IMG/VR virus record: IMGVR_UViG_3300005190_000020
Strand: one strand, 5' to 3'
From: a virus
DNA length: 64,000 bases
Every line of letters starts with the position of its first letter. Position 1 is the stretch's first letter. Under the pieces are notes generated by a model. It was not told where the DNA came from. It did not search any database and saw nothing but the letters and a program-made list of their open reading frames with translations. Below are positions 7,351 through 62,359 of the stretch, piece by piece. Position numbers and translations under genes: made by a program.

Positions 7351-7353
7351 AAT

Positions 7354-8954: not shown

Positions 8955-9053
8955 GTAAAGGGAAATAGTGGAAATCAGGCTGTCAGTCGGTCTTTGCGAG
9001 CTTGAATGCTCTGATACCTCTTGCTTTGCCGAGGAGACTTGCTGTCCAGTCCG

Positions 9054-9082
9054 CCGAAGTAACTGATTTCCTTGCCCTAGTG
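9054..9082 (-). repeat. tRNA-associated conserved element, family 1 copy (minus-strand reading CTAGGGCAAGGAAATCAGTTACTTCGG)
   Basis: One of six copies sharing the 3' block (G/C)TTACTTCGR; lies immediately 3' of the intron-containing tRNA. Confidence 0.55.
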
Positions 9083-9085
9083 AAT

Positions 9086-9220
9086 TGGAGAGAGCTGGAC
9101 TCGAACCAGCGACCACGGGTTATGCATCCGAAGTAACTCCACTACTCGCACCAAGTAATTGGTTAATGTTGTAACGGAGTAGTTAAGTTACGCCGCTCTG
9201 CCTAACTGAGCTACCTCTCC
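9086..9220 (-). tRNA. tRNA gene with ~60-nt insertion (putative intron) between D-arm and T-arm; anticodon unresolved
   Basis: Clear 5' part GGAGAGG-TA-GCTC..GAGC and 3' part GCTGG-TTCGAGT-CCAGC-TCTCTCC-A; intervening sequence ends with conserved GGTGCGAGTAGTGGAGTTACTTCGG. Confidence 0.5.
9128..9152 (-). repeat. tRNA-associated conserved element, family 2 copy (minus reading GGTGCGAGTAGTGGAGTTACTTCGG) inside the tRNA insertion
   Basis: Shares a ~55-nt alignable block with the insertion at 10820-10870. Confidence 0.55.
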
Positions 9221-9223
9221 ATT

Positions 9224-9296
9224 TGGGTTGAAAAGGATTTGAACCTTTGTTCTCCTCGATGTAAGCGAGGTGTCTTGACCGCTAGACCATCAACCC
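9224..9296 (-). tRNA. tRNA-Val (anticodon UAC)
   Basis: Acceptor GGGTTGA/TCAACCC, anticodon arm CCTCG-CTTACAT-CGAGG, T-loop TTCAAAT. Confidence 0.8.
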
Positions 9297-9793
9297 ATAT
9301 ATTCTTCGAGTTTGACTTCCGAATTGTGAAACTCTATATGATGTTTTTTGCAAATCCATTCAACTTCTAAAGGTTTGTCGTAATCTGTGTGATGTGCTTC
9401 AATATTTTCTTCTGTGCCGCACTTTACGCATTTACCTCTTTGAAGTTTTCCTGTTTGAACTGCGCTGTTAACCATTCTCCTTGCTCTGACTTTTTTCGGG
9501 TGTTTTTCTTCTTGTCTTTGTTTGTACCTGTATTTATACTCTGAAATACCGCCTTTCCAATTAGGGTTGTTTTCACCTGTTTGGTCAATTTTTTCTGCCC
9601 TTAGTTTGCCAGAGCATTCTGGGCTGCAAGTTTTTCTTTCTTTTTCTTCATCATCCATTTTAAAGTGGCTGAGTTTTACTTCGTAGTCCTCTCCGCAATA
9701 GTTACACTGCTTGATTACTACTTTACGTTTCCTGCCGTGTAATTTACTTCTGTATACAGTTTTTCCTTGAACTACTTCATCCAGCTCTTCCAT
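9290..9793 (-). CDS. HNH endonuclease (start at Met of MEELDEV; promoter motif 9808-9826 upstream)
   Basis: CNYCG..C..C zinc finger, NPNWKGG motif, EAHHTDYDKPLEVEWICKKHH HNH core. Confidence 0.7.
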   Translation of the reverse strand: MEELDEVVQGKTVYRSKLHGRKRKVVIKQCNYCGEDYEVKLSHFKMDDEEKERKTCSPECSGKLRAEKIDQTGENNPNWKGGISEYKYRYKQRQEEKHPKKVRARRMVNSAVQTGKLQRGKCVKCGTEENIEAHHTDYDKPLEVEWICKKHHIEFHNSEVKLEEYMG

Positions 9794-9829
9794 AGTTATT
9801 ATATGTTTCCCAACTTTTATATATGTTGT

Positions 9830-9905
9830 TAGCGGGAACAGGATTTGAACCTGTGACTTCAAGGTTATGAGCCTTGCGACTTGGACCTGGCTCGTCTACC
9901 CCGCT
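9830..9905 (-). tRNA. tRNA-Met (anticodon CAU), initiator-like (A1:U72)
   Basis: Acceptor AGCGGGG/TCCCGCT with A1-U72 as in archaeal initiators; anticodon arm CAAGG-CTCATAA-CCTTG; T-loop TTCAAAT. Confidence 0.7.
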
Positions 9906-9910
9906 ATTTA

Positions 9911-9985
9911 TGACGAGACACGGATTTGAACCGTGGACATCTCGGATATGAACCGAGTGTTCACTCCTGACTGAACTACCTCGCC
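9911..9985 (-). tRNA. tRNA with anticodon CAU (elongator Met or Ile2/AUA-decoding)
   Basis: Acceptor GGCGAGG (two G-U), anticodon arm CTCGG-TTCATAT-CCGAG, T-loop TTCAAAT. Confidence 0.65.
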
Positions 9986-10020
9986 GTCTTATAGGTTAAC
10001 TTATTTAAACTTTACCAATT

Positions 10021-10045
10021 CACTGTGTGTGTGTTAAAGATTATA
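10021..10045. repeat. inverted partial copy of the (CA)5 element
   Basis: CACTGTGTGTGTGTTAAAGA = reverse complement of TCTTTAACACACACACAGTG seen at 6236 and 60723. Confidence 0.45.
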
Positions 10046-10056
10046 GGGTGGTTGAG

Positions 10057-10130
10057 TGCTAAGGACTGGATTTGAACCAGCATCCTCTCCATCTTCAGTG
10101 GAGCGCCTTCCCGAGTTAGGCTACCTCAGC
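10057..10130 (-). tRNA. tRNA-Phe (anticodon GAA)
   Basis: Acceptor GCTGAGG/CCTTAGC, D-arm GCCT..AGGC, anticodon arm CTCCA-CTGAAGA-TGGAG, T-loop TTCAAAT. Confidence 0.8.
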
Positions 10131-10270
10131 ATCAGGGAAAATTGAAAGAGACGGTAAATAACCAGGCTTACAAGACCTGGGCAGCACGCCTTGTGCTATA
10201 CCTCCCGTCGGGAGGTGAAAGAATCGAACTTTCCGAAGTAAGTCTCCTTCTTGCCCTAGTAAAAAAAAGT
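10131..10270 (-). other. rearranged (apparently circularly permuted) tRNA-like locus: T-arm + 3' acceptor strand lie UPSTREAM of a 5' half carrying a Thr-like (UGU) anticodon arm
   Basis: Minus reading: family-1 element ...TTACTTCGG-AAAG-TTCGATT-CTTTC-ACCTCCC-G-AC-GGGAGGT-AT-AGCA..TGCT-G-CCAGGT-CTTGTAA-GCCTGG; acceptor halves ACCTCCC/GGGAGGT are complementary. Confidence 0.4.
10233..10259 (-). repeat. tRNA-associated conserved element, family 1 copy (minus reading CTAGGGCAAGAAGGAGACTTACTTCGG)
   Basis: Directly abuts the T-arm of the permuted tRNA-like locus. Confidence 0.55.
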
Positions 10271-10407
10271 AATTTGCCGCTTGACAGACCTGGAAAGCCT
10301 GTATCAGCGTAGTGTTGCCACTCGGACAAACATTATTTTAGAAAATGCGAATCTTGAGATACGTGAAATAGTGTCCAAGTGGTTCACCTCTGTAATTTAT
10401 TATTGTG

Positions 10408-10427
10408 GTTTAACTTTTATAAAACCT
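10408..10427 (-). promoter_or_regulatory. conserved TATA/BRE-type promoter motif
   Basis: GGTTTAACTTTTATAAAACC. Confidence 0.5.
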
Positions 10428-10443
10428 TTTGTTTACCGCAAGG

Positions 10444-10517
10444 AGGATTCGAACCTCCGAGCTTCAGGTCCAAAGCCTGATGAGATTGACCACTACTCCA
10501 CTGCGGTGTTATTCGAG
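10444..10517 (-). tRNA. tRNA-Gln (anticodon UUG)
   Basis: Acceptor ACCGCAG/TTGCGGT, anticodon arm TCAGG-CTTTGGA-CCTGA, T-loop TTCGAAT. Confidence 0.75.
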
Positions 10518-10588
10518 AGCTTTTAGCAGCTCTCTGCTTTCAAGTGCTATCCAAAACAGTTTTTGTCTGCGTACTGAGTAACTCATGA

Positions 10589-10661
10589 TAGCTCCGGCAG
10601 GATTCGAACCTGCGTCTCCACGCCCAGAACGTGGAAGGATTGGCCTCTACCCTACGGTGCT
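10589..10661 (-). tRNA. tRNA-Gln (anticodon CUG); one A-A mismatch in acceptor stem
   Basis: Anticodon arm CCACG-TTCTGGG-CGTGG, T-arm GCAGG-TTCGAAT-CCTGC. Confidence 0.6.
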
Positions 10662-10667
10662 GTAAAT

Positions 10668-10741
10668 CGCCTCCACAGGGAGTCGAACCCTGGGCCAACG
10701 CTCGAAAGGCGTTGATGTTTTACCACTTACACCATGGAGGC
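10668..10741 (-). tRNA. tRNA-Glu (anticodon UUC)
   Basis: Acceptor GCCTCCA/TGGAGGC, anticodon arm AACGC-CTTTCGA-GCGTT, 4-nt variable loop, T-loop TTCGACT. Confidence 0.65.
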
Positions 10742-10782
10742 GTATGCGTATTCCTTATTTTGTGTCGAAATGTCGAATGAGG

Positions 10783-10920
10783 GCTGACGGATTCGAACCG
10801 CCGTCACCGGCTCCACAAGCCGAAGTAACCGTACCTAACTCGCACCTTTTTACAGGTTAAACATTGTTGGACGGTGAAAGTGGTATCTTTGACCAAACTA
10901 GACAAAGCCCTCGTCGGTGA
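10783..10920 (-). tRNA. tRNA gene with ~55-nt insertion (putative intron); anticodon unresolved
   Basis: 5' part GAGGGCT-TT-GTCT..AGAT and 3' part GGCGG-TTCGAAT-CCGTC-AGCCCTC-A pair as acceptor; insertion ends AAGGTGCGAGTTAGGTACGGTTACTTCGG, alignable with the insertion in 9086-9220. Confidence 0.45.
10820..10846 (-). repeat. tRNA-associated conserved element, family 2 copy (minus reading GGTGCGAGTTAGGTACGGTTACTTCGG)
   Basis: Second member of the GGTGCGAGT...GTTACTTCGG subfamily. Confidence 0.55.
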
Positions 10921-10924
10921 GTGT

Positions 10925-10998
10925 TGGATTCGAACCAACGACTTCCTACGCCCAAGGTAGGAGTCCTCGCCCACTAGACCAACTCACCATAGGTGAAA
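10925..10998 (-). tRNA. tRNA-Pro (anticodon UGG)
   Basis: Acceptor GGTGAGT/ACTCACC, anticodon arm CCTAC-CTTGGGC-GTAGG, T-arm GTTGG-TTCGAAT-CCAAC. Confidence 0.8.
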
Positions 10999-11097
10999 CA
11001 GTGGGAAACAGCGTTTAGTTGGAGGATTTAAAGTAGGGTCCCGCCTCCTGCCACAGGCGGTTGTGTTCGAAGTATCTGTTTCCCTTGCACCTGTTTA

Positions 11098-11172
11098 TGC
11101 CGCCGACGAGATTTGAACTCGTGTCGCTTGCTCGAAAGGCAAGCATGATTGACCTGACTACACTATGGCGGC
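11098..11172 (-). tRNA. tRNA-Glu (anticodon UUC), typical archaeal Glu-type sequence
   Basis: GCCGCCA..GTGTAGTCAGGTCAATCATGC..CTTGC-CTTTCGA-GCAAG..ACGAG-TTCAAAT-CTCGT. Confidence 0.7.
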
Positions 11173-11177
11173 AGTAT

Positions 11178-11250
11178 CGCCCGGCACGGGATTTGAACCC
11201 GTGTCCACCGGCTGACAACCGACGATGATGAGCCACTACACTAGCCGAGC
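11178..11250 (-). tRNA. tRNA-Asp (anticodon GUC)
   Basis: Acceptor GCTCGGC/GCCGGGC, anticodon arm GTCGG-TTGTCAG-CCGGT, T-arm ACGGG-TTCAAAT-CCCGT. Confidence 0.7.
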
Positions 11251-11358
11251 AAAAAAGGTTAGAGTGCTACAGGATAGCTTACGGTTAGAGATTGGTTACT
11301 CTTCCCTCGCGAGGGTTACGGCTTTGCCGTCCGCAGCCCGCTCCCTGCACTCTGTAGA

Positions 11359-11433
11359 TGCTCCCTCTGAGATTTGAACTCAGGACCCAAGACTGAGAAT
11401 CTTGGATGATTGACCGTACTACACCAAGGGAGC
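11359..11433 (-). tRNA. tRNA-Glu (anticodon CUC)
   Basis: Acceptor GCTCCCT/AGGGAGC, anticodon arm CAAGA-TTCTCAG-TCTTG, T-arm CTGAG-TTCAAAT-CTCAG. Confidence 0.75.
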
Positions 11434-11582
11434 ATGTATACATCGTAGAAAAACTTGCTAACCCAATTGTCTTGGGTCGTTAAGAAGTAAAACCTGGATA
11501 GCTTTACCTCTCTTACTGTCCAGCATCTTCTGGTTGCTGGGGTTCAGAGGGTTCTAGGTAAAGCTCTACAAGTGACATAAGT

Positions 11583-11656
11583 GGTATGGACCCTGTCAGA
11601 CTTGAACTGACGGCCTTTCCGTTGCAAACGGAACGCTCTGCCAACTGAGCTAAGGG
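11583..11656 (-). tRNA. tRNA-Ala (anticodon UGC)
   Basis: Acceptor GGGCCCT with G3:U70; anticodon arm TTCCG-TTTGCAA-CGGAA; T-loop TTCAAGT. Confidence 0.8.
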
Positions 11657-11767
11657 CCCGTGGTAAAGGACGGTGATTCTCGGCATCCGCACCTCCTGCA
11701 CCGTTCCTCGAAGCAGGTTGTGGTTCATCGCCTTTTATTTAAAGGTGCTGGGTAAGCACCGTGTTCA

Positions 11768-11838
11768 TGCGCCCAGTGAGAATCGAACTCACGCCACTCG
11801 CTTGGAAGGCGAGTATCTTACCACTTGACCATGGACGC
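11768..11838 (-). tRNA. tRNA-Gly (anticodon UCC)
   Basis: Acceptor GCGTCCA/TGGGCGC, anticodon arm CTCGC-CTTCCAA-GCGAG, T-arm GTGAG-TTCGATT-CTCAC. Confidence 0.7.
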
Positions 11839-11946
11839 TGGTAGTGAAGGGTTGCCATTGAAGGTGAGTCCGTCACAGGCTTTTTCCGTTCGCCTCTGGT
11901 CTACACCCGCAACCCTTCGGTTTAATTCGTGTTAAGGTTCAATAGT

Positions 11947-12022
11947 ATCCGCAGGCCGGACTCGAACCGGCAGCCTGTCGTTTACAAGACGACTGCTCTG
12001 GAACCAATTGAGCTACTACGGA
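11947..12022 (-). tRNA. tRNA-Thr (anticodon UGU); U1:A72 first pair
   Basis: Acceptor TCCGTAG/CTGCGGA, D-arm GCTC..GAGC, anticodon arm GTCGT-CTTGTAA-ACGAC, T-arm GCCGG-TTCGAGT-CCGGC. Confidence 0.7.
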
Positions 12023-12047
12023 ATTGTCTTGACTGTATATTATTATT

Positions 12048-12069
12048 GTCACTTAACTTTTATAAATCC
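12048..12069 (-). promoter_or_regulatory. conserved TATA/BRE-type promoter motif, ~35 nt upstream of tRNA-Thr(UGU) 5' end
   Basis: GTCACTTAACTTTTATAAATCC. Confidence 0.5.
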
Positions 12070-12079
12070 TTTGTGTGGA

Positions 12080-12151
12080 ATCCGGTTGCGAGACTCGAAC
12101 TCGCACCTCCGACATACCAAGTCGGTGTACTGCCTTTGATACTAAACCGGA
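12080..12151 (-). tRNA. tRNA-Thr (anticodon GGU); U1:A72 first pair
   Basis: Acceptor TCCGGTT/AACCGGA, anticodon arm CCGAC-TTGGTAT-GTCGG, T-arm GCGAG-TTCGAGT-CTCGC. Confidence 0.7.
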
Positions 12152-12160
12152 GTAAGTAAG

Positions 12161-12346
12161 TTAGTATGGTGCTACAAAGTCTTCTGCTTCAGGGGTGGTA
12201 CTCATTATTTCGTAGCTCGTTTCTGGTTCGAGGTTGTGGTCTGCCCATGTTTCTGCTTCGCTCCGGTTGTCTGTCTCCGTGGTGAAGCGTACTTCTCCGT
12301 CTACAGCTACAATCCACCTTACTCTGGTGTCTTGATTCATCATCAT
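12161..12346 (-). CDS. small acidic hypothetical protein (61 aa)
   Basis: ORF only; weak. Confidence 0.3.
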   Translation of the reverse strand: MMMNQDTRVRWIVAVDGEVRFTTETDNRSEAETWADHNLEPETSYEIMSTTPEAEDFVAPY

Positions 12347-12451
12347 ATGTATATTTATAGTTACTAACCTTTAAAAATGTGTTTGAGAGTAGGGGTCGAA
12401 TAGTTTGCCGGAACAAAAACTTTTATTATTGTTTAATTTCAAGTAATATGT

Positions 12452-12985
12452 ATGGAAGAAACCGAAAGAACATGGAACGGGAAAACGGTTTACAGAGGTT
12501 CGAAGAACGATTCTCAAAAACAAGACTATGTAAAGAACAATTGTGAGTATTGTGGCGAATATTTCTATGCTCTTTTACAATCTAGGAAAAGAGGAAACGG
12601 GAACTTCTGTAGTCGCTCCTGTAGCGGTAAAAAACAAGCTGAAGAAGGAAACTTAAGCGGCGAGGACAATCCTAATTGGAAAGGCGGTGTTAGTGAAAAC
12701 CATTACGAAAGGAATAAAGAGCAGTATATACAAAGAACTAAGGAAAATAAGTTGAAGAAGAAGAAATTTGTTGAAGACTACAAAAAGGAAAGAGAATGCG
12801 AAGAATGTGGAGAAGGGTTTTATCGCTGTTTACAGTTTCATCATCGTAACCCTGAAGAAAAATTTAAAGGGGTTTCTGAGATGGCAGACCTCAATTATTC
12901 AATAGACAGAATTAAAGACGAAATAGAGAAGTGTGACTTAGTATGTTCTAACTGTCACAGGAAAAGACATTACGAAGAAGAGTAG
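12452..12985 (+). CDS. HNH endonuclease (the only plus-strand gene of the island)
   Basis: CEYCG..C..C zinc finger, DNPNWKGG motif, FHHRN...CDLVCSNCH HNH core. Confidence 0.7.
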   Translation: MEETERTWNGKTVYRGSKNDSQKQDYVKNNCEYCGEYFYALLQSRKRGNGNFCSRSCSGKKQAEEGNLSGEDNPNWKGGVSENHYERNKEQYIQRTKENKLKKKKFVEDYKKERECEECGEGFYRCLQFHHRNPEEKFKGVSEMADLNYSIDRIKDEIEKCDLVCSNCHRKRHYEEE

Positions 12986-13055
12986 GGTGTGAGATTTGAA
13001 CTCACGTAAATCTGCTCTGCAAGCAGACACATATAAACCACTCTGTCAACCCTAC
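12981..13055 (-). tRNA. tRNA-Cys (anticodon GCA)
   Basis: Acceptor GTAGGGT/ACCCTAC, anticodon arm TCTGC-TTGCAGA-GCAGA, T-arm GTGAG-TTCAAAT-CTCAC. Confidence 0.65.
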
Positions 13056-25839: not shown

Positions 25840-27375
25840 TTACTGGTATGCCTCTATTTCCATTGGCTCCCAGTTTTTAATGTCGTTCAAGAGTGCTTCC
25901 TCGTTTTCAGCGTGCTGAATGTAGTCAAGCATGTCGCTTGTCCATCCCTGCAACTCGTAAACGTCAGGGTAGCCTTCAGGGAAGCTTAGGTCTCCGTAAC
26001 TTGAAAGGTCTACAAGGTAAAGACTTGCGGACGGATTAACTTCTTCCTTGTAAGCCTCCCACTCGTCTTTCAAGGTTTGTGCGTCGTGACTCCAACCTGC
26101 GTTTGAATCCCATAACTGTAGGTCGGAGAACATAACTACACGTTTGTAGCTCTCTCCTTTCTGCCGGATGTCTCTGATTGCTTTGTAAGCGTTTGTGCTT
26201 CCTCCTGTCTGAGCATCCATGATTTTCTGCTGAAGCTCAAGTGTCGGAGTGTTGTAGTGAGCTTTGACGCGTTTGTAACGCTTACCGAATGCTCCTGTGT
26301 CGCTTCCGTGACGCATCATCATGGCTCCGAACAAGGCACCGATTTCTGCGTGCTGTAGGTCGGATTCCTGACTGATTCCTACTCCGTACATGGAGCCGGA
26401 TGTGTCTACAGCTGTGAATGTGTCGCTTAGGTTGTCGTCTAAACTGTCTGATGCTTTGTCGATTGCCTCTGAAAGTTTTTCTTCGATGACTGGGTCGCTG
26501 ACTCCTGCGTCCTTAACTGCTTTGTAGGACTGGTAGAATCTGAAAGGCCAAATCTGTGCGTGTTCAACCCATTCTAGGTCGATGTCGCCTACGATTTCCT
26601 CTGATTCAAGCCCTGCTTCTTTCATGTTTCGAATGTTTCTGATTCGGGCGAACAGTCCCATGTCGTCTAGGACTTCTCTCCATGCTTCGGCGTTGTTGCC
26701 TTTCTCGGAGATAACTGTTTCCCATGTCTTGCCTTGTGACTCGTTTAGAGGCTGTACGTCTGGGTACTTGTCTAGGTCGCCTCTCATCAGTCTTTCGAAG
26801 ATTTCGTCTCTTAACTCGTCTTGAGGGTTTGGGTGAGTCCTGTTGATTACGTCTCTAATGTTGACTTCACGGTTGTCGTTGTCGTACTTGTCGTACTGGT
26901 ATTTGTCGAATTTGTGAAGTGCTTTGTTGATTCCTTTTTTCAAAGGCTTCGGCATTGTTCCGCCTTGTAGCTGGTCCCATGCTGCTACGACTGTTGCTGG
27001 TTCGTCGGCTCTGTCGATAATGTTTCCAGCCCATTTTTCGACGTATTCCTTGGTTCTGTCGTCGCCTGCTGCAAGGACTAGAAGGACTTGTGAAATGTCT
27101 CTTAATCCCATGCTTTGTCTGGCGTATGCAGCCAGTTTCAAAGCAAACTCAGGGTTTTCGTCTGCTACTTCTTCGAAGGCTCGTTCAACGCTTCTAAGCT
27201 GTTCTTGGTCGTTTTCGTAGTAAGTGTCTTCAAGAAGGTTGTTGATGACGTTTTTAGCCAGGCCTAGTTCAGGTGTGTCTGGCTCGTATGCTTCGCCACC
27301 TTCATAGTTTGTGGTTTTGGTTCTTTCTGCAACTGTGTCTTTTGTGCTGTTTAGTTCCATTGTGTTGTTTAGCAC
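25840..27375 (-). CDS. vWA-domain protein with large N-terminal helical domain (Ro60/TROVE-like architecture)
   Basis: C-terminal MIDAS-like AVDTSGSM...; ~320-aa alpha-helical N-terminus + ~190-aa vWA, 511 aa total as in Ro60/Rsr. Confidence 0.4.
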   Translation of the reverse strand: MLNNTMELNSTKDTVAERTKTTNYEGGEAYEPDTPELGLAKNVINNLLEDTYYENDQEQLRSVERAFEEVADENPEFALKLAAYARQSMGLRDISQVLLVLAAGDDRTKEYVEKWAGNIIDRADEPATVVAAWDQLQGGTMPKPLKKGINKALHKFDKYQYDKYDNDNREVNIRDVINRTHPNPQDELRDEIFERLMRGDLDKYPDVQPLNESQGKTWETVISEKGNNAEAWREVLDDMGLFARIRNIRNMKEAGLESEEIVGDIDLEWVEHAQIWPFRFYQSYKAVKDAGVSDPVIEEKLSEAIDKASDSLDDNLSDTFTAVDTSGSMYGVGISQESDLQHAEIGALFGAMMMRHGSDTGAFGKRYKRVKAHYNTPTLELQQKIMDAQTGGSTNAYKAIRDIRQKGESYKRVVMFSDLQLWDSNAGWSHDAQTLKDEWEAYKEEVNPSASLYLVDLSSYGDLSFPEGYPDVYELQGWTSDMLDYIQHAENEEALLNDIKNWEPMEIEAYQ

Positions 27376-28200: not shown

Positions 28201-28938
28201 TTACGTGTCTTGTAGTGCATTGGTCTCTGTCTCCCCGCCTTTACGCCAGTGAAGTTCTTCTGTTTGAACATGGTTTTCACGCACGCATTTAGCCATGTTC
28301 TCAGTTAATTCATCCAGCGGGAATCCTTTAGTGTTTCTTACGACGTAGCCTTCTCTTGTGTCTCCGTACTTGCTTTCTCCTTCAGGCATTTTGTCTACGA
28401 TACTCATGTACCTTCTGAAGTCGTCTCCTATTTCTAAAAATTCTTCGAGGTCTGTTATACGGAATTTGTCTATTACTGGTACGGTTGGCAACCCTACTTC
28501 TTCTGCTATTGCTTCTACTTCGTACCACGGCAGCCATTCTCCGTCGTAAAGCACTCCGAATACTAGGAAGTAGCTTGGAAGGTTTTCATAATCTATGCTG
28601 TGCCGTGCGTAAAGGTATTCTCCGAAGATTGCGAAGTCTTCAGGTATTTTGTGCATCAGTTCTTCTCTGTGCCTTTTCTTGAGATAGTCCCATTCTTCTC
28701 TATGCGGTTCACCTGAGTGGCTCCGGGCATAGACTTTGTCACTGGTTAGGCAGGCGTTTGCCCCGTCCATCTTCTCTGTTATCACTACTTCGTTCATAAA
28801 GTTTTGTTTCGTGAACATTTCTTCGGTTTCTGATTTGCTAAGCCATTTCTGTTGCCGTGCGTCTTCTTGACTCCAAGGCAGGTGTTTCATGCTCGGCATT
28901 TTAGGTACTTCGTGTCCATGTTCGTTATTCTGTGTCAT
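28201..28938 (-). CDS. covalent nucleotidyltransferase of the ligase family, most likely an RNA ligase (Rnl2/DRB0094-like size)
   Basis: Motif I VITEKMDGANA (KxDG), motif III-like IFGEYLY, motif IV EGYVVRN; only 245 aa and a bona fide DNA ligase is encoded elsewhere (62383-63315). Confidence 0.5.
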   Translation of the reverse strand: MTQNNEHGHEVPKMPSMKHLPWSQEDARQQKWLSKSETEEMFTKQNFMNEVVITEKMDGANACLTSDKVYARSHSGEPHREEWDYLKKRHREELMHKIPEDFAIFGEYLYARHSIDYENLPSYFLVFGVLYDGEWLPWYEVEAIAEEVGLPTVPVIDKFRITDLEEFLEIGDDFRRYMSIVDKMPEGESKYGDTREGYVVRNTKGFPLDELTENMAKCVRENHVQTEELHWRKGGETETNALQDT

Positions 28939-29963: not shown

Positions 29964-31361
29964 TCATTCATCTCCCTCGCTGATTTCCTTCATCATGTGG
30001 ACACGGTCGTTTAAAATGGTTTGTCCAAGTGCTTCGCCGTCAAAGTCTTCGATTTCTTTGTCTCTCTGGTCTGCGACGTATTCTGCGTCAACGATTCTTA
30101 TTGCTTCTCTCGCCATTTCAAGTCTTTGCTCAATCCGGTTGAAGGCGGTCATGTCTACTGGTACTTCTTTTTCTCTTCCTGCGTTGTCAGCCTTGGCTAA
30201 GTCGATAAGTTCTTCCTGTGTCGCACCTTTGTTGCTGTCAAGCCTTTGAACGAGTTCAATGACTTTTGACTCTCTCATACAGGATTCCTGTGCTGGGTCT
30301 ACGTTGAAAATCCTCATGTGTTCTCTGCATGCGTCTTTCATTTTTTCTTTGTACTCGTTGCTTAACCTCCATTTCTCGGCTAGGTCTTCTGCTAGTTCAA
30401 CTCCTAGTTTGTCGTGGCCTCCTGTGTTCTCTTCGTTTCTGGTTTCCAGTTTGCCGATGTCGTGGACTAAGGCCATCATCAGTTTGTCGTTGTTGCCGAG
30501 GTCTAGGTCTGCCATTTCGTCTACGACCATCATGGTGTGTGTCCAGCAGTCTCCTTCGCCGTGGTGTTCTTCTGGTCCGGCACTGATGTAACGTAGCTTG
30601 GTTAGTTCCGGTGCGATGACGTGTAAGGCGTTTACTTCCATGCAGACTTCCCAGAATCGTCTTGGGTCTTCTGCTTGTTTCATTGCTTTGTGTATTTCGT
30701 CTCCGATTCTTTCGCCTGGAACTTCTTCAAGTTTCGGACTGGTTAACTGGGCGATTTCAATTGTTTCGTCTGCTATTTCGAACTCTGGCATCCGTGCTGC
30801 GAAACGTGCCAATCTTAGGACGCGTACAGGGTCTTCTTTGAATGCCTGTGATGTGTGTCTCAACACTTTTTCGTCTAGGTCTTTGATTGGGTTGATTGGT
30901 CTTTCCGGCCTGATTTCGTCTTCTTCGAAGTTGTCAAGCAGTGGGAAGTGGTAGTCTTGTTTACCTGGCTCCATTGCAATGCTGTTTATGGTTAGGTCTC
31001 TTCGTCTAAGGTCTGCTTCCAAGCTTACGTTTTCTGTGTTTACTTCGAAGTCGTGGTATCCGTCGCCTGTGTTTTCTTCTGTCCGTGCCAGTGCGAACTC
31101 GTTTTTCTGGTTGTCGTGGAATACTGGGAAGCTCTGTGCGTCTATTTTGTGGAATCCTCTGTCCAGCATTTCTTCTTCCGTTTCTTCTGTGACAACGAAG
31201 TCGTAGTCCTCTGTTTCCTTACCTATTAAAGAGTCTCTTACCTGTCCTCCTACTGCGAACCATTTAAGGTCTTCGAAGTCTATTCCTTCTTGGTTTTCTA
31301 TTTCTTCGTGTTTTGGCCGTATGTCGATTGGGTCGAAATCTGTCATTTTATCATTCCTCAC
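29964..31361 (-). CDS. cca: class II tRNA nucleotidyltransferase (CCA-adding enzyme) with C-terminal HD domain
   Basis: GGQVRD (GGxVRD), DYDF, RRDLTINS class-II head motifs; HDIGK HD motif; 465 aa. Confidence 0.8.
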   Translation of the reverse strand: MRNDKMTDFDPIDIRPKHEEIENQEGIDFEDLKWFAVGGQVRDSLIGKETEDYDFVVTEETEEEMLDRGFHKIDAQSFPVFHDNQKNEFALARTEENTGDGYHDFEVNTENVSLEADLRRRDLTINSIAMEPGKQDYHFPLLDNFEEDEIRPERPINPIKDLDEKVLRHTSQAFKEDPVRVLRLARFAARMPEFEIADETIEIAQLTSPKLEEVPGERIGDEIHKAMKQAEDPRRFWEVCMEVNALHVIAPELTKLRYISAGPEEHHGEGDCWTHTMMVVDEMADLDLGNNDKLMMALVHDIGKLETRNEENTGGHDKLGVELAEDLAEKWRLSNEYKEKMKDACREHMRIFNVDPAQESCMRESKVIELVQRLDSNKGATQEELIDLAKADNAGREKEVPVDMTAFNRIEQRLEMAREAIRIVDAEYVADQRDKEIEDFDGEALGQTILNDRVHMMKEISEGDE

Positions 31362-33298: not shown

Positions 33299-34087
33299 CT
33301 AATCTTTATAAATGTATTTGTCGGGCCACTTGTATTCAAAACCTTTTGGAGGATTACCCATCCACTTCCATACTTTCTTTGAGTCTTCAACGCTAAATTC
33401 TATTATACAGTTTACTTTACCTGCTCCATTTTTTCTTTTGTGTTCATTCCATCGAGCTATTTCTACAGGTGTGGAATCAAACATTTTTCCTACTTTTTCT
33501 TTCTCTGCTCGTTCGTTTGACAAGCCTATTGCTATGTAATTGTTATTATTTGTGTTATGCCATGTGCCGTCACAGCAGAACCAGTGCTTTAATATTTTTG
33601 GAGTTAACTTTATTTCAGGGAACTTTTTTTCACCGCTTTCATACCATTTTTCAAAGTTTGATAGTTCTGGATGTTTTCTTCCGTTGAGAACATATAAGTC
33701 TGAGTAATTTTCTTCAGAAGCGTTTTCACTCAACCCTGTTTTTCTTGCGTGTCTGGCGGATTCTTCTGCTGTTGCTTTCCTGCTGATTTTGCTTGACAAA
33801 AACGTTAGTTCGCTGTCTAAGTATTCAAGGTATTTTCTATTAGTATTTGTTACGCATATTGAAGGATTTCCAGCTTTGTTGATGTATCCATCTCCCATCA
33901 ATACACCTGTAATTATTTCTTTTTGTTTTTCAGAAATTTCTGGGTAATTACAGCTAGATTTATTCCAGTGAAGAGATATGTTCTTGTAGTTGTTTCCACA
34001 TTGTTTACATTTCATAAGAGAAAAAAGGTGGAAGGTGAAAGTGAAGTTCGGGAAAACCCACCTTGCTGGGTTATGACATTGGGGCAA
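33299..34087 (-). CDS. LAGLIDADG homing endonuclease (two-motif, monomeric type); start uncertain (34087 or internal Met ~34015)
   Basis: ITGVLMGDGYI and WFCCDGTW LAGLIDADG-type motifs; AT-rich. Confidence 0.6.
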   Translation of the reverse strand: MPQCHNPARWVFPNFTFTFHLFSLMKCKQCGNNYKNISLHWNKSSCNYPEISEKQKEIITGVLMGDGYINKAGNPSICVTNTNRKYLEYLDSELTFLSSKISRKATAEESARHARKTGLSENASEENYSDLYVLNGRKHPELSNFEKWYESGEKKFPEIKLTPKILKHWFCCDGTWHNTNNNNYIAIGLSNERAEKEKVGKMFDSTPVEIARWNEHKRKNGAGKVNCIIEFSVEDSKKVWKWMGNPPKGFEYKWPDKYIYKD

Positions 34088-34255: not shown

Positions 34256-34462
34256 TTAGGTATACGTGGTCGTGCATTCTCTCCATCCCTCAACTACTTT
34301 GTCTTTCGAAGGTTTTTCCTGGCTTACCCACCACATTCCGTGGCCGTACTTCGTGTTGTATTCATCGGCTATGCTGTGCGCTCTTTCCTTGCTTATCCCT
34401 TGCCACGGAGTGATTGGCCTGTATTCTTCGTCTTCGCCTTGCCTGTACCAGATTGTTGTCAT
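34256..34462 (-). CDS. hypothetical protein (68 aa)
   Basis: ORF. Confidence 0.3.
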   Translation of the reverse strand: MTTIWYRQGEDEEYRPITPWQGISKERAHSIADEYNTKYGHGMWWVSQEKPSKDKVVEGWRECTTTYT

Positions 34463-35358
34463 CGTGGAACCACGCTTCTAATCAGGTCGTTGACTTTTTC
34501 ACGGCTGATTCCTCGGACATCGTGTTCTGAATGATTTATTTCTTCGCCTTTCTCGATTTCGTTGCTCATCCAGTCCCAGAGTTCTTGGTCTGCGATTTCA
34601 CGGCTTCCTTCTCCGTTTGTCTTGGCACGGATAAATTCGTCGAGGTAGGTTTTAACCATGTCTGGAACATTTAACTGGTCAAGTTCCTCATCAACGAATC
34701 TTTGGAAGTCCAGTGGCGGCCTCTGGTGTGTCTCTAAGACGTACTTGGCATAGGTCAAACCTCTTAGAATGTATAGGTGTCGCTTTATTGAGAGGTCGTT
34801 CCGGTTGTCGATGTATTTGTTGTAGTTTGCCTTACCCATCTCCCTGTAATGCCCCCAGAGTGCGATAGGTTTAAATTCGTCGTTGGCGTGTTGCCTGATT
34901 AATTCCAGGTTGCCTTTGACGTTAGGCATGTCGTTAACCCTCATAAGTTTTGGGTCTTTCATTTTTTCTTCGCTTGGCTGTTCGAAGATTTTCTCGCCTT
35001 TCCAAACCCAGTAAGGTTCTAGTTCGTAGTACGTGATTCCGCTGTTCAACCATTCAATCATGGAAGGATTGGACTTGTTCAACAGTTCTGCGAAGCGTTT
35101 AATGTTCCAACCGATTAGTTCGAACTCTTCTCCGTCCAGCATGAATTTGCGGTCGATGTTCTGCGTGTATCCTCCTAGTTCGATGTAGTCCATTGGCTCT
35201 TGACTGAAAACCATTCCTGCGTCCATGTCGCTTGTCTCTGAGTCAAGGTTCCATGCCCGTGAACCGTAGTCACGGACGGAAAGGACTTTGATTTCGTACT
35301 TGTTTTCAAGGTATCGAATCATTTCGTGGATGTCGTCAAATTCTTTGTGGTCTGTCAT
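34459..35358 (-). CDS. Pol-beta-superfamily nucleotidyltransferase
   Basis: YGSRAWNLDSETSDMDAG = GS-x9-DxD nucleotidyltransferase signature; 299 aa. Confidence 0.5.
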   Translation of the reverse strand: MTDHKEFDDIHEMIRYLENKYEIKVLSVRDYGSRAWNLDSETSDMDAGMVFSQEPMDYIELGGYTQNIDRKFMLDGEEFELIGWNIKRFAELLNKSNPSMIEWLNSGITYYELEPYWVWKGEKIFEQPSEEKMKDPKLMRVNDMPNVKGNLELIRQHANDEFKPIALWGHYREMGKANYNKYIDNRNDLSIKRHLYILRGLTYAKYVLETHQRPPLDFQRFVDEELDQLNVPDMVKTYLDEFIRAKTNGEGSREIADQELWDWMSNEIEKGEEINHSEHDVRGISREKVNDLIRSVVPR

Positions 35359-39038: not shown

Positions 39039-39644
39039 TTATTTTTGCTGCAACTCTTCGTATTTTTGCTTTTTTCTCTTGAGATAATATTTTGCAGGGT
39101 AGAAGAAGTCTTGAATTTTTTTACTATCTTTCTGCATATAAGATAAAACAAACCCGTTATTAGTTCTTTCATGTATGTTAACTGAGGTACAACCTGCTTT
39201 CTGGTTTAACTTTTTTCTTATTTCTTTTAAGAAGTTTTTATCTTCTGAGAAAAATCTGGTGTTCATATATCCTTTACTTTCATATATGCCGCCGTCGCCG
39301 TCGAAGAAACCTCTTATGAAATCTCTGTCTGAAACTTCTTCAGGGTAAACTAAATCTCTGGATTTATCTGAAGTGTAACCTATACTTTTAAGGGCGTCTG
39401 CTAATTCTTTGCTGTTGAAATTTATGTAGAAACAGTTTTTCTTTTTTCTTTCAGTTATAGGGTGGCTTGAGTTAAGACAGGTCTTTAAGTCCTGTAAAAC
39501 TTGCTTATCTCCCGAAGTTATTCTTACGGTTGTGTCTCTTAAGTTTCCATCAGCGGCAAAGTATCCTAAGAAATATGATTGTTTTTCTGAACTTAAATCA
39601 TCTAAATCCTCTTTCAAATCGTATTTTCTGTATCGTTTAGGCAT
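39039..39644 (-). CDS. LAGLIDADG homing endonuclease (two-motif)
   Basis: LGYFAADGNL and IRGFFDGDGG motifs; AT-rich, 201 aa. Confidence 0.65.
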   Translation of the reverse strand: MPKRYRKYDLKEDLDDLSSEKQSYFLGYFAADGNLRDTTVRITSGDKQVLQDLKTCLNSSHPITERKKKNCFYINFNSKELADALKSIGYTSDKSRDLVYPEEVSDRDFIRGFFDGDGGIYESKGYMNTRFFSEDKNFLKEIRKKLNQKAGCTSVNIHERTNNGFVLSYMQKDSKKIQDFFYPAKYYLKRKKQKYEELQQK

Positions 39645-46849: not shown

Positions 46850-47468
46850 CCTAGCTCGGGAAGGTGAATTTAGATGAAAGCTATCAAGGGTTGATGGTTG
46901 AGCGGCTTTCTGTGCGTCTAAACTCAGATTTACCTTCGCACGCGTACCGTCTCCGGTTACGATTGCACGCCCGTTTTACAGGTTTAATACCTGCCTGTCT
47001 TCGGCTTCCCTCCGCTGCGTTCCACAATCAACGCCGACAAACCTGATACGGCTTGTCAGCCCTCGTCTCTATAGCTTCGGGTCTGACTTACGCCAGTCCG
47101 CCTCTCGTGGAAGAGCCTTCGAATAGGGGTGTGTCGTGAGCCGACTTTAACCTAAGCAGCTTTTTTCACTGCCTGGTCTGAGTTCCTCAACCCTTAGTCG
47201 GAGAGGTCTTTGGTGTCTGCCCACCGCCCTATGGTTCGAACCTTTTCCTTTTTATCGGTTTTAAGCCCTCGACCGTCTTCACGGATTTGAGAGCGCAGTA
47301 GGGTAATAAGCATAGGGTTTGTGCTGAACCGGTTAAAGCTCAGGGTGTCTCACCTCGGTATCCCGCACCTATCTAAAGACCGGCTTTTAACAAGTGACTT
47401 ATCCCAGTCAAGTGCCTCCGCCTTTTTAGCCTCGGGTGAACTTTTTCCTTCTCCTAGTAAATTAGTAT
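46850..47468 (-). ncRNA. candidate large structured non-coding RNA or decayed element (~620 nt without plausible ORF), between promoter motif 47469-47490 and tRNA-Leu(CAA)
   Basis: No minus-strand ORF >= 60 aa; GC visibly higher than coding flanks; many inverted repeats; perfect-consensus promoter immediately upstream. Confidence 0.3.
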
Positions 47469-47490
47469 TGGTGTTTAACTTTTATAAACC
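47469..47490 (-). promoter_or_regulatory. conserved promoter motif (perfect consensus)
   Basis: GGTGTTTAACTTTTATAAACC. Confidence 0.55.
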
Positions 47491-47602
47491 TATTTGGAAT
47501 CGGAGTAGTGCCACGCATTCACTGATGTTACGGGTTTTTTCACCTATTCCTGATTCGAAGTAAGTGACTTCTCCGCCTTTGTTTTCTACTTTTTCTTGTA
47601 GG

Positions 47603-48490
47603 CTAAACGTACTGTCCTTCTGGCACGACTAGGTGCTGTACTGCGTCCATTTCTGCGGCTTTTTCTACTTCGTTTTTGCCGTACGCTACTTTTTCGGGTT
47701 GTTGGTCTAGCCGTGTCAGGAATTGTTCGGTTACTTTTTCTAGTTCTAGTTCGTTCCTGTTTTTCAGGTTGTCTTTTACTTGTTGGAATGCTTTGCTTAG
47801 GTTCTGTGTTTCTTTGGCTTCGGCTACGATTTCTTCTTTGAGTTCGCCGTTCAGTTTTTGTTTGATGTCTTTGTTGAGTGTGCCTGTTATGATTACTCCT
47901 AGTAGTTCGTCGTTCCTCAGTTTTTTGAGGAAGTGGTCTTGTGCTGTGTTACTGATTTCCTTTACATAGTTTTTCTTCTTCTCTGCCCTGTATCTTTCCC
48001 ATCTCTGCGCACTTTGACCTCCTTTGGAATGCTTTGAGGGTATGCCGGAGACGTCTTCACGGAGTCGGGTTGTGTTTCCTTGTTTGTCTGCCATGCCTGC
48101 CCTGTACTTATCTCTGTCTGCTTGTATGATTCCGTAACGCGTGTCATCTCGCTCAAGTTTTTCGATGGGTTCGGTGTGGAATTTGTTGTCGCAACGGTAA
48201 AGTTTCTGATTCAATTCTTTCTCTGGAATATGTGTAACTGCTTTATCGTGTTTTGTGTAAATCGCTACACCGTTTTCAGGTACTCTGCCTAGTTCCTTCA
48301 ACTTGTTCTGCGCTTTCTTTAACGCGGCTTGGACTTTTTTCCTAGTGTTCTTGTTCTTTATATTTTTTGCTTCGCTTCTTTCGTTTTTCAAAAGGTTTCG
48401 AGCATTTTTTATGCTGTAGTCTGCTGGTAACAGGAGGCTTACAAGTGTTGTACCTGTGCCTTCGATGTCGCTTAGTTCGTTTAGAGTCAT
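47603..48490 (-). CDS. eRF1/aRF1-like class I peptide chain release factor (domains 1-2; shorter than cellular aRF1)
   Basis: NIKN (NIKS-like) motif, YRCDNKFHTE (eRF1 YxCxxxF motif) and KHSKGGQSAQRWERYR (GGQ motif) in correct order; 295 aa. Confidence 0.75.
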   Translation of the reverse strand: MTLNELSDIEGTGTTLVSLLLPADYSIKNARNLLKNERSEAKNIKNKNTRKKVQAALKKAQNKLKELGRVPENGVAIYTKHDKAVTHIPEKELNQKLYRCDNKFHTEPIEKLERDDTRYGIIQADRDKYRAGMADKQGNTTRLREDVSGIPSKHSKGGQSAQRWERYRAEKKKNYVKEISNTAQDHFLKKLRNDELLGVIITGTLNKDIKQKLNGELKEEIVAEAKETQNLSKAFQQVKDNLKNRNELELEKVTEQFLTRLDQQPEKVAYGKNEVEKAAEMDAVQHLVVPEGQYV

Positions 48491-48498
48491 AAGTAAAG

Positions 48499-48583
48499 TG
48501 AGGTTGGCAGGATTCGAACCTGCGGTAGGTCGCTATGGACCGGCTCCTAAGGCCGGCACCTTTGGCCGCTCGGTCACAACCTC
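48499..48583 (-). tRNA. tRNA-Leu (anticodon UAG), type II
   Basis: Acceptor GAGGTTG/CAACCTC, anticodon arm CCGGC-CTTAGGA-GCCGG, long variable arm, T-loop TTCGAAT. Confidence 0.75.
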
Positions 48584-48692: not shown

Positions 48693-48713
48693 GGTGTTCA
48701 ACTTTTATAAACC
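48693..48713 (-). promoter_or_regulatory. conserved promoter motif upstream of tRNA-Leu(UAG)+aRF1-like gene
   Basis: GGTGTTCAACTTTTATAAACC. Confidence 0.5.
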
Positions 48714-58821: not shown

Positions 58822-60057
58822 CTATGCCTGTCCAAGTGCCTCTTGGACTTTCTCGGACTTGTCAAGTAGTTCATCTCTAGCCCTTGTGTAAGTTCTTCCG
58901 CCTTTACCTGTTCTCTCCTTGAATGAGTCTTTTCTATCTCCTACGGTTGTGTGGTCTTCCTCAAGGATTACAGCTCTTGCGTGGTAAAGGTTGTCATCTG
59001 TTTCGATGAGTTCGTTGGTAAGTTCGTGCCAAGTTTCATCTCCTATCTCTGCGTCAATATCTTCTGCGTAGTCGTAAAGTTTGAACGCTCTCATCAAGGT
59101 TCTAAGGTTTACATCTTTTGTAGCCGATGTAGTGACTTCTCTTATCCAGTCGGCTATCTCAAGCCTTGTATCTCTATCTATGTCGTGTTCTTGAACACCT
59201 TTTTTAGCTACTGCTCCGATTAGCTTCAGCCTTTGCTCGTATGTAAACTGTAGCTCGTAGTAAAAGCACCTGTCCTGTAAACTGTGGACTATGGGGTCAT
59301 CAGGGACTTCGTTGAAGCACATAATGATTCTGCCTGTAAACTCAAACTTGGGGTCTATATCCTGTCCGTGTTCGTTCTGTAGTTTGCTGGTGCTACTGTT
59401 CCATTCTACATATCTCTTGTCTGTTTCACTCCAAGTCGCCTGTTTGAGTATAGCCAGTGCTTTCTTGTTGTTTATCAAGCCTTCGATGTCGTCAAGGAAT
59501 AACACTTCTTTGTCAGGGTCTTGTTCTACTTCCCACAACTTTTTGTAAAACTGGAATGGTGGGCAGTAACCACTCTGTGTTTTGTAGCCGTCAGCACCTA
59601 GTTCGTTGGTTAAAGTCTTCTGAATCTGGTAACTTTTTCCTATACCGTGCTTTGCGTTAATCATTAATGCGTCGTGGTGTCCTTTGGCAATAGCTCTTAC
59701 ATAGTGGTTGAAAAACTTGTAGAAGCTCTGGACTTCTTCTTCTTCATCTGTGCTTCCGTCACCGAAAAATCTTTCAAGTTCTTGTTCTTTCTGTTCTTCT
59801 ATCTCCTCTATGTATTTTTCGTGTATCTCTCTTTCCTTCGCTTTAATTTCATCTTCTGTCAAGTCTTCTGCTTTTTCTTCTAGCTTTGCTTCACTATCCA
59901 TCAAACCCTCTACTTTCTCCTTAATAATATCCCAGTTCTCTGCTTCCGTCAGTTCTTTATCAAGCACACTCTCAAAGTCTATCCGTGAAGGGTCTACATT
60001 TCTCGCCTTAGCATACTGCTCTGCGTTCGTTTTCATCAGCTCTTTGTTTGTTTCCAT
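58822..60057 (-). CDS. P-loop NTPase (AAA/SF3-helicase-like), acidic N-terminal domain
   Basis: Walker A AKHGIGKSY, Walker B VLFLDDIEG; 411 aa. Confidence 0.45.
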   Translation of the reverse strand: METNKELMKTNAEQYAKARNVDPSRIDFESVLDKELTEAENWDIIKEKVEGLMDSEAKLEEKAEDLTEDEIKAKEREIHEKYIEEIEEQKEQELERFFGDGSTDEEEEVQSFYKFFNHYVRAIAKGHHDALMINAKHGIGKSYQIQKTLTNELGADGYKTQSGYCPPFQFYKKLWEVEQDPDKEVLFLDDIEGLINNKKALAILKQATWSETDKRYVEWNSSTSKLQNEHGQDIDPKFEFTGRIIMCFNEVPDDPIVHSLQDRCFYYELQFTYEQRLKLIGAVAKKGVQEHDIDRDTRLEIADWIREVTTSATKDVNLRTLMRAFKLYDYAEDIDAEIGDETWHELTNELIETDDNLYHARAVILEEDHTTVGDRKDSFKERTGKGGRTYTRARDELLDKSEKVQEALGQA

Positions 60058-61618: not shown

Positions 61619-62359
61619 TCATTCTTTTAGCCTCTCAGGTATGCTATATGTAGGTTTTTTATTCACTCCTTCATCTTTTCTTCTTAATCTTCTCTGTTTG
61701 TTGTGGCAGTTATTAGAACAGTATTTTTTTGTGTTACTTCCTGTGTCTTCACCGCACATAATACAATTTGTTGTCTTTAAACTTTTTAAAAGCTCTTTGT
61801 TTTTTCTATTTATTTCAAACCCTACTTTCTCTGCGTATTTCTCTCTTGCTTTCCTTCTACCTATTTTCAGTCCGTAAACTTTGTTCTCTGATAGTCCTTT
61901 CTCTGTTGTAAAACTGTGTATGTTTTCTTCTTCAATTCCTATTTCTTGAAGTTTTTTCTGTGCTGTATTCACTACATCAGGGTTTGTCATTCTAAGCCTT
62001 ATGTCGTATGCTGTTTTTCTGTTTGTTTTTTTCTGTATGTTTCCGTCACCATCAAATAGTGCTTGTAGATATGGCTCTGGTTGTGCTTTGGTTCTGTCTG
62101 AAAACATTATTTCTTCGTAAAGCTCTTTGTTTGCCTTGTTTACTTGATAAAAGTCATCGTAGTCATATAAATTTACTTCTTCGCCTGTTTCTTCTTCTAA
62201 TATTTTTCTGAATTTTTCTGCGTATTCTCTGTCTTTTACTCCGAGCTGTATTGAATAAGCACCATCTCTTGTTTTTGATAAACAACCGTCTGAGTCTACT
62301 ACTCCTTTAAGGTATGATAGGTTCTCTCTCATATTTTTGTTTTCGTTTTTCACATTCAT
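61619..62359 (-). CDS. LAGLIDADG homing endonuclease (two-motif) with C-terminal Cys cluster
   Basis: LKGVVDSDGCL and LQALFDGDGNI motifs; C-terminal CIMCGE...CSNNCH; AT-rich. Confidence 0.65.
   Translation of the reverse strand: MNVKNENKNMRENLSYLKGVVDSDGCLSKTRDGAYSIQLGVKDREYAEKFRKILEEETGEEVNLYDYDDFYQVNKANKELYEEIMFSDRTKAQPEPYLQALFDGDGNIQKKTNRKTAYDIRLRMTNPDVVNTAQKKLQEIGIEEENIHSFTTEKGLSENKVYGLKIGRRKAREKYAEKVGFEINRKNKELLKSLKTTNCIMCGEDTGSNTKKYCSNNCHNKQRRLRRKDEGVNKKPTYSIPERLKE

Follow-up and report, generated by a model that had tools for sequence, protein, structure and literature searches.

The window analyzed here is a 64,000-nucleotide stretch of the IMG/VR virus record IMGVR_UViG_3300005190_000020, and its minus strand carries a gene for a protein of the archaeal/eukaryotic release factor 1 (aRF1/eRF1) family. 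An open reading frame (ORF) of 295 amino acids occupies positions 47603-48490. Its codons 1-295 (47606-48490) specify the N domain, the M domain with its GGQ motif, and ~45 residues at the start of the C domain. The earlier note on this DNA had described the ORF and three hallmark motifs in a fixed order, and both were found as described. The first motif is NIKN (residues 43-46; 48353-48364, minus strand), a stop-codon-recognition motif of the NIKS type whose fourth residue is N, D, or S within the family. It is followed by YRCDNKFHTE (residues 98-107), of which the first seven residues (98-104; 48179-48199, minus strand) form the YxCxxxF stop-codon-recognition motif, and by KHSKGGQSAQRWERYR (residues 153-168), which holds the peptidyl-tRNA hydrolysis motif GGQ (48014-48022, minus strand) seen in both the ORF translation and the alignment. 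Across 53 aligned sequences, N43, I44, and K45 are kept in at least 90% of rows; Y98 and F104 are invariant, and C100 is nearly so; E37, the counterpart of eRF1 E55, is invariant, as are G157, G158, Q159, and S160.

The profile search suggested in the earlier note recovered all three eRF1 domains, in order and above their gathering cut-offs (eRF1_1, 28.8 bits against 23.8; eRF1_2, 52.6 against 27.1; eRF1_3, 31.1 against 25.8). The protein is thus a true homolog, and a chance arrangement of motifs is excluded. When the Protein Data Bank was searched with phmmer, eRF1 was matched with an E value of 1e-34 and aRF1 (3agk) with 3e-26, and Pelota was far weaker (2e-4). Pelota/Dom34 and Balon lack the stop-recognition motifs and GGQ. 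Because GGQ, NIK, and YxCxxxF are all retained, the protein falls with the class-I factors rather than with Pelota; a Pelota-like rescue factor is disfavored by the intact stop-recognition and GGQ motifs and by the much weaker Pelota matches. On this sequence evidence, the protein is predicted to be a genuine aRF1/eRF1-family class-I release factor.

The earlier note had also held that the protein appears to lack its C-terminal domain. This does not stand: Pfam eRF1_3 matches residues 251-291 above cut-off, and the remainder of the domain is encoded in the +1 frame (47604-47485). In a three-frame translation, the +1 frame, entered one base beyond the T of the TAG stop, reads SLQEKVENKGGEVTYFESGIGEKTRNISECVALLRFQIGL, which resembles the end of an eRF1/aRF1 C domain, and then stops. 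This tail of 40 codons (47485-47604, minus strand) completes the C domain and carries ALLRF, the strand equivalent to the GILRY motif of eRF1. Its TAA (47482-47484, minus strand; context TAA-A) is the true stop of the full-length product and lies inside the next promoter motif. The feature therefore reaches down to 47482, past the coordinates first assigned to it. Because ALLRF is encoded in the tail, a complete C domain with a GILRY-type strand is obtained only if the +1 tail is joined to the ORF. The full product is a compact, three-domain aRF1 of 335 amino acids and not a C-terminally truncated factor. Annotation pipelines will call such genes as truncated 295-residue proteins.

A protein search returned a tight family, nearly all members of which are exactly 295 residues long (52-100% identity), together with two distant relatives of 310 and 312 residues. 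We compared the DNA of ten family loci from independent assemblies (JGI viromes, Logan SRA assemblies, and two NCBI records). The split architecture is present in the window and at all ten of these loci, at identities from 83% down to 35%, with +1 tails of 35-42 codons. A twelfth locus (L171; protein P0063, 55% GC) was examined as a prediction, and it ends in GAC GTT TAG C followed by the tail SSVEEAVEQQGGEVVHISTEHEAGQRLKRMTDVAALLRFKSR and a stop. An ORF stop with a following +1 tail was thus found at 12 of 12 loci. The tails of the first 11 loci share the pattern S.xE.VE..GGE..Y......I..VA.LRF.I, directly before the stop. One further protein of the family, P0012 (203 residues, 80% identical, on contigs of up to 84 kb), breaks off after ...LLGVIITG in the linker between the M and C domains. 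The break could be a mobile insertion (these genomes often carry homing endonucleases) or a gene-calling break.

Selection on the tail was gauged from pairwise Nei-Gojobori estimates of nonsynonymous and synonymous differences (pN and pS). In the +1 frame, the tail has a pN/pS of 0.37, against 0.38 for the gene body, whereas the same nucleotides read in the two other frames give 1.14 and 1.00. Synonymous sites of the tail are near saturation (pS 0.77), so that the loci are close to independent of one another at those positions. These values point to purifying selection on the tail in the +1 frame only.

The tail is also recognizable as the end of a release factor. We trained a hidden Markov model (HMM) solely on the C-terminal ~46 residues of 34 cellular aRF1/eRF1 proteins and ran it against the 1,902 stop-to-stop fragments of the window in six frames; the tail ranked first (E = 0.022), and the next fragment had an E value of 3.7. 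An alignment of 11 tails, compared with cellular aRF1 C-termini (last ~41 residues) by hhalign, matched end to end with 97.3% probability and an E value of 2.3e-11, and in this profile comparison the ALLRF of the tail aligned with the A(I/L)LR(F/Y) of cellular factors. Conversely, an HMM of the tails matched cellular factors at their very C-terminus (in one case, residues 325-362 of 364).

A structure prediction, likewise proposed in the earlier note, gave, with good confidence, a full three-domain aRF1 fold for the fused protein. AlphaFold2, supplied with the 335-residue sequence and the 53-row alignment, returned a model with a mean predicted local distance difference test score of 89.1. In this model, the tail contributes a helix (295-303) and two strands (307-311 and 326-329) to the C domain; the 295-residue product would consequently miss the helix, both strands, and ALLRF. 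The best Foldseek matches of the model were aRF1 (3agk, 4af1, 3vmf) and eRF1, with Balon and Pelota/Dom34 well behind (E values from 1e-8 to 1e-17). In eRF1, the class-II factor is bound through the GILRY motif, and in archaea it is the C-terminal part that contacts aEF1-alpha (PMC3521657).

The frame changes at the heptamer GTT TAG C (47602-47608, minus strand), which consists of a P-site Val codon, the in-frame stop, and a C in the +4 position. The junction reads TAC GTT TAG CCT in the zero frame and GTT-T-AGC-CTA when read in +1. The same heptamer is present at 11 of 12 loci, and the remaining one (L008) has TTT TAA C; the base after the stop is C at every locus. Both GTT and this C are kept without variation at synonymous positions. 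GTT is the rarest Val codon in genes of the family (44 of 279, or 16%; 5% in the gene of the window), and it occupies the P-site position in all 11 loci with Val, for which the product of the per-gene frequencies is 4e-10. The zero frame has no internal stop, and the single recoding event, at codon 295 of 335, would yield the long product. The true end of that product is TAA at 10 of 12 loci, and the next base is A or T at 10 of 12.

Two other accounts of the in-frame stop were rejected. Readthrough of the UAG would add a zero-frame extension of 1-20 codons, which is short and unconserved. Reassignment of a stop codon does not agree with the use of all three stops by the ORFs of the window (TAA 38, TGA 28, TAG 13, in a crude ORF set), as the earlier note had pointed out. 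TAG is a genuine stop there: two PHROG-supported genes, at 33299-34087 and 58822-60057, end in TAG-G. Wholesale stop-codon reassignment is not apparent.

No match to the locus (DNA, distant mode) or to the protein (tblastn) was found among 50,697 GenBank phage and archaeal-virus records, and two scans of IMG/VR, one with the single protein and one with the alignment, returned no relative. A metagenome scan returned almost exclusively cellular aRF1 genes, which served as unsplit controls: 73 of 79 loci outside the family reach an LR[FY] C-terminus in one frame, and the other six extend beyond the contig end, are incomplete, or resemble eukaryotic factors and have longer tails. Among controls from reference genomes, 76 of 79 run in a single frame to the C-terminus (with the variants MRY, TRY, SRY, and ARY counted), and three run off the contig. 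No cellular aRF1/eRF1 locus in either control set has the split arrangement.

The comparison with cellular aRF1 called for in the earlier note places the family with the aRF1 of Nanohaloarchaeota. The family was monophyletic in 100 of 100 neighbor-joining bootstraps, with the nanohaloarchaeal proteins as sister group in 98 of 100. These proteins (from Nanosalina, Nanohalobium, and Nanoanaerosalina) are also the best cellular matches, at 33-38% identity, and have the same domains and motifs. They differ in being ~395-416 residues long, in being encoded in a single frame, and in carrying a Cys-rich insertion of ~55 residues (CxxC...CxxC) exactly at the position of the viral shift site. The viral proteins lack this insertion, as well as one loop of the N domain of cellular aRF1.

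We consider it highly probable that the locus is a compact, virus-borne aRF1 gene whose synthesis needs a programmed +1 ribosomal frameshift. In this mechanism, the ribosome would read codons 1-295 and then stall with tRNA-Val on GUU in the P site and the poorly terminating UAG-C in the A site. Slow action of release factor would allow the P-site tRNA to slip from GUU to UUU (from UUU to UUU in one lineage), after which AGC (Ser) would be decoded in the +1 frame, followed by 40 further codons up to the strong TAA stop. Slippage of this kind predicts the junction peptide HLVVPEGQYVSLQEK, with Ser at the junction (Asn in L008). Termination at UAG would instead leave a 295-residue product with a broken C domain, and only the shifted product would have the complete domain with the ALLRF strand that cellular aRF1/eRF1 use for their delivery GTPase.

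Several observations weigh against this mechanism or parts of it. Slippage from GUU to UUU leaves a C:U mismatch at the first position, and re-pairing would be poorer than in the CUU to UUU slippage of bacterial prfB. Neither a conserved RNA structure near the shift site (consensus energy, -0.04 kcal/mol) nor a conserved Shine-Dalgarno-like or purine-rich element upstream of it was found. Furthermore, aRF1 is normally omnipotent, and any feedback would therefore sense the total of host and viral factor rather than the viral factor alone. The UAG or UAA stop occurs in effectively three or four independent lineages, too few to argue for codon specificity. Lastly, no virion genes were found among the larger ORFs of the window, and the status of the genome as a virus is therefore indirect.

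Transcriptional slippage or RNA editing is the alternative that survives best, and it is improbable. In this scenario, one nucleotide would be dropped at GUUUAG to give an mRNA with a continuous ORF of 335 codons. The conserved TTT at the junction would suit a slippage site, and DNA sequence cannot discriminate the two processes. A run of three T residues is, however, far shorter than the homopolymers known to be prone to slippage. Moreover, the invariance at the junction includes the stop codon and the +4 C, which are relevant to competition between termination and frameshifting and not to polymerase slippage. The same type of heptamer in Mimivirus is unedited in cDNA and shifts during translation (PMC3521657). 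Ribosomal slippage is the likely explanation of the event.

Slightly less support remains for a split gene, in which the 295-residue protein and a peptide of ~40 residues would be made separately, by re-initiation at the overlap, and then assembled; this too is improbable. Gene callers did annotate an ORF of 41-43 residues across the stop in L002, L003, and L006, and five loci have a +1-frame ATG two codons before the site. The latter ATG arises because the preceding Tyr codon is TAT and not TAC, a synonymous choice, and it is found only where Tyr is TAT. In the window and in L001, L004, and L005, the open +1 stretch before the tail is devoid of ATG, GTG, and TTG, and L004 lacks them in its entire +1 ORF. 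In addition, the modeled tail supplies a helix and two strands to the C domain.

It is very unlikely that the 295-residue protein is the sole functional product, acting as a decoy or as a GTPase-independent factor, with downstream conservation reflecting, for example, the promoter of the next gene. Termination at UAG may well be the fate of most ribosomes, and a promoter motif overlaps the last three codons of the tail. Such a promoter cannot account for 120 nucleotides of frame-specific constraint, which is codon-periodic in the +1 frame over all 35-42 codons, and the tail is specifically homologous to the aRF1 C-terminus. We give still less weight to quadruplet decoding, by which a viral tRNA with an enlarged anticodon loop would read UAGC (or GUUU) as one codon. 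This would predict a product of the same length, and the genome holds at least 27 tRNAs, but none of the tRNAs that ARAGORN called, in the window or in related loci, has a four-base anticodon, and the UUU UAA C of L008 would require a different quadruplet reader. A pseudogene or an error of sequencing or assembly, of which a single-base frame break is the commonest signature, has a negligible probability and is effectively refuted by the comparative data, with the break recurring at one and the same codon in 12 assemblies that differ in project and technology, signs of purifying selection on both halves, and a conserved junction heptamer.

A programmed +1 frameshift at an in-frame stop has close precedents in release-factor genes. 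In Mimivirus R726, +1 frameshifting at CUU UAG C was shown experimentally, in E. coli, and the eRF1-like gene mg280 of Megavirus has the shift heptamer CUU UAA C (Jeudy et al. 2012, PMC3521657). As proposed here, these are viral factors of the eRF1/aRF1 family that reach full length through a +1 shift at an in-frame stop. Their heptamers are nearly identical to the GUU UAG C and UUU UAA C of the present family, and in both cases the stop is weak (UAR-C) at the shift site but strong at the true end. They differ in belonging to giant viruses that infect eukaryotes, whereas the genome here is archaeal virus-like; in having Leu rather than Val or Phe in the P site; and in the place of the site, which lies in the 5' part of the giant-virus genes after an obligatory UGA readthrough. 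Here, a single event would suffice, in the C domain and 40 codons before the end. The different position of the site, together with the monophyletic and nanohaloarchaeal-like origin of the protein, points to an origin independent of the giant viruses.

The second precedent is bacterial prfB, which encodes RF2 and shifts at CUU UGA C. It shares with the present gene an in-frame stop within a release-factor gene, a slippery NUU U P-site codon, and a +4 C, an arrangement in which frameshifting would compete with termination. The fold of the encoded protein is unrelated (RF1/RF2 as opposed to eRF1/aRF1), and the prfB site, at codon 26, is stimulated by a Shine-Dalgarno-like element upstream; no such element is conserved here. 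The UGA of prfB is an RF2-specific stop; aRF1, by contrast, is expected to recognize all three stops. Pelota/Dom34 and the bacterial factor Balon, which act in rescue or hibernation, share the overall three-domain eRF1-like fold; the viral protein is unlike them in keeping the stop-recognition motifs and GGQ and in matching aRF1/eRF1 far better. The locus would be a variation on a known kind of system, a stop-guarded release-factor gene, in a new domain of hosts.

By analogy with prfB, the shift site may sense how much release-factor activity the infected cell has in total and provide negative feedback, a proposal for and against which we see the case as evenly balanced. Since termination and shifting would compete at one codon, full-length output should fall when release-factor activity is high. 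For Archaea, the literature that we searched describes one experimentally shown -1 event and predicted events in the tail-chaperone genes of haloviruses (PMC8211752, PMC5009743), and it holds no description of +1 recoding in an archaeal release-factor gene or in archaeal viruses. Nor does the searched literature describe an aRF1 gene for any archaeal virus; among isolated archaeal tailed viruses, a survey lists no release factor (PMC8651126). A viral aRF1 widens the known set of translation genes of archaeal viruses. The short, structure-free +1 signal is phylogenetically validated and directly testable in haloarchaeal reporters. If it is confirmed, the stop-guarded release-factor gene would have at least three separate origins (in bacterial RF2, giant-virus eRF1, and archaeal-virus aRF1), and so many origins would argue that the circuit is a strong attractor and not a relic.

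The gene stands immediately behind a tRNA in a virus-like genome, as the earlier note had stated. A tRNA-Leu with anticodon UAG (48498/48499-48583, minus strand; called by ARAGORN, Rfam tRNA 58.8 bits, E = 9e-12) lies directly upstream on the same strand; it reads CUN and is not a suppressor. The spacing given before, 9 nucleotides, is 7-8 nucleotides when measured to the ATG, and there is no room for a promoter between the two genes. An exact copy of a promoter-like motif of the TATA-box type, GGTTTATAAAAGTT, stands upstream of the tRNA-Leu/aRF1 unit on the minus strand. The earlier note had placed this perfect motif at 48693; it is found at 48700-48713. With two mismatches or fewer allowed, the motif occurs 20 times in the window against 0.93 expected, and 17 of the copies are on the minus (gene) strand; copies lie, for example, at 34149, 45170, 47477, 48700, and 51476. 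A second exact copy (47477-47490, minus strand) overlaps GGT TTA TAA, the last codons of the tail, and heads a noncoding RNA region downstream.

The start codon directly follows the 3' end of a tRNA or tRNA-like element in 10 of 11 other loci (all but L006), and with the window included (48491-48499) the gap is 1-8 nucleotides at 11 of 12 loci. In L006, a TATA box ~25 nucleotides upstream of the aRF1 start takes the place of the tRNA. The annotated ATG of L008 lies inside the tRNA, and the next ATG is the likely start. In L004, a 110-nucleotide Rfam tRNA match (2890-2999; 37.7 bits) that ARAGORN did not call abuts the aRF1 ATG and may be an intron-containing or otherwise atypical tRNA. An Rfam scan of the gene region returned tRNA only. 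A start codon that abuts a tRNA suggests a nearly leaderless mRNA, arising through tRNA 3' processing or through direct transcription. That the message is cut from a tRNA-mRNA co-transcript by tRNA 3' processing is about as likely as not.

We give somewhat less than even odds to a wider scenario in which archaeal viruses captured their aRF1 from a nanohaloarchaeon-like host, the bare heptamer GUU UAG C evolved independently as a prfB-like sensor, and the gene became part of a viral module for tRNA maturation and translation. If this is true, the feedback circuit would have been invented convergently for a third time, in yet another translation system, and Archaea would have their first stop-codon-dependent +1 recoding signal. 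The module, comprising tRNAs, an RNase P-like RNA, a CCA-adding enzyme, an RNA ligase, and Ro60/RlaP, would then sustain translation under host shutoff or attack.

Directly downstream of aRF1, behind the second copy of GGTTTATAAAAGTT, lie ~560 nucleotides that contain no credible ORF and are conserved more than coding sequence. Within them, a conserved RNase P-like RNA (46888-47193, minus strand), a neighbor outside the gene, is collinear with copies in L004 (4238-4555), L005 (4018-4317), and L009 (2765-3189), with which it shares more than 150 invariant alignment columns. The relatives match positions 1-288 of the Rfam model RNaseP_arch (RF00373) with E values of 3.5e-10 (L004), 7e-5 (L005), and 0.024 (L009), all below the gathering score; the best, L004, scores 46.5 bits against a threshold of 84 bits. 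Rfam did not detect an RNase P-like RNA in the window copy alone, which is recognizable only by alignment to its relatives. Of the 80 base pairs predicted in the downstream stretch, 21 show compensatory changes. Four consecutive GC/CG swaps fall in a long-range P4-like helix with AAAGUC and ACAGAA on its flanks. The literature searched contained no account of an RNase P RNA encoded by a virus; if active, this RNA would be a further unusual addition to the viral tRNA-processing toolkit. Upstream of the RNase P-like core and after the promoter motif at 47477-47490, there is a second conserved, structured stretch of ~200 nucleotides (~47240-47445, minus strand). GUUCACC/GGUGGGC forms its closing helix, and the hairpins inside it show compensatory changes; L005 lacks this stretch, which matched no Rfam family.

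The window has 43% GC and 27 tRNA genes, 24 of which lie at 6136-13055. It encodes ribonucleotide reductase, RadA, PCNA, DNA ligase, and LAGLIDADG and HNH endonucleases, and no partner GTPase (aEF1-alpha-like) was found among its larger ORFs. The CCA-adding enzyme has its best match among known viruses in Halogranum tailed virus 1 (35% identity), which has 36 tRNAs and a similar toolkit (PMC8651126). Several contigs of the family come from virome samples (record names P4metv, MetavP1, and p5metav). The source is a large, virus-like genome of salt-loving archaea, and its status as a virus is well supported but indirect. The contig CAZCWR010000001.1 (L007/L091; 120 kb, GCA_964502455.1), deposited as an "uncultured archaeon" metagenome-assembled genome, carries a split aRF1 within a cluster of 13 tRNAs and is probably the genome of a virus or other mobile element that was binned as cellular.

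A set of genes for RNA repair and tRNA maturation lies on the minus strand at 25840-27375, 28201-28938, 29964-31361, and 34459-35358; it comprises a Ro60/TROVE protein, an RNA ligase, a CCA-adding enzyme with an HD domain, and an RlaP nucleotidyltransferase. ORFs resembling LAGLIDADG/HNH homing endonucleases (33299-34087, 39039-39644, and 61619-62359, minus strand) are interspersed among the replication and RNA genes. Among the tRNAs called by ARAGORN, the tRNA-His (10777-10844, minus strand) is only 68 nucleotides long with its anticodon at position 29, an unusual geometry that could be due to a mis-set 5' end or to an atypical tRNA.

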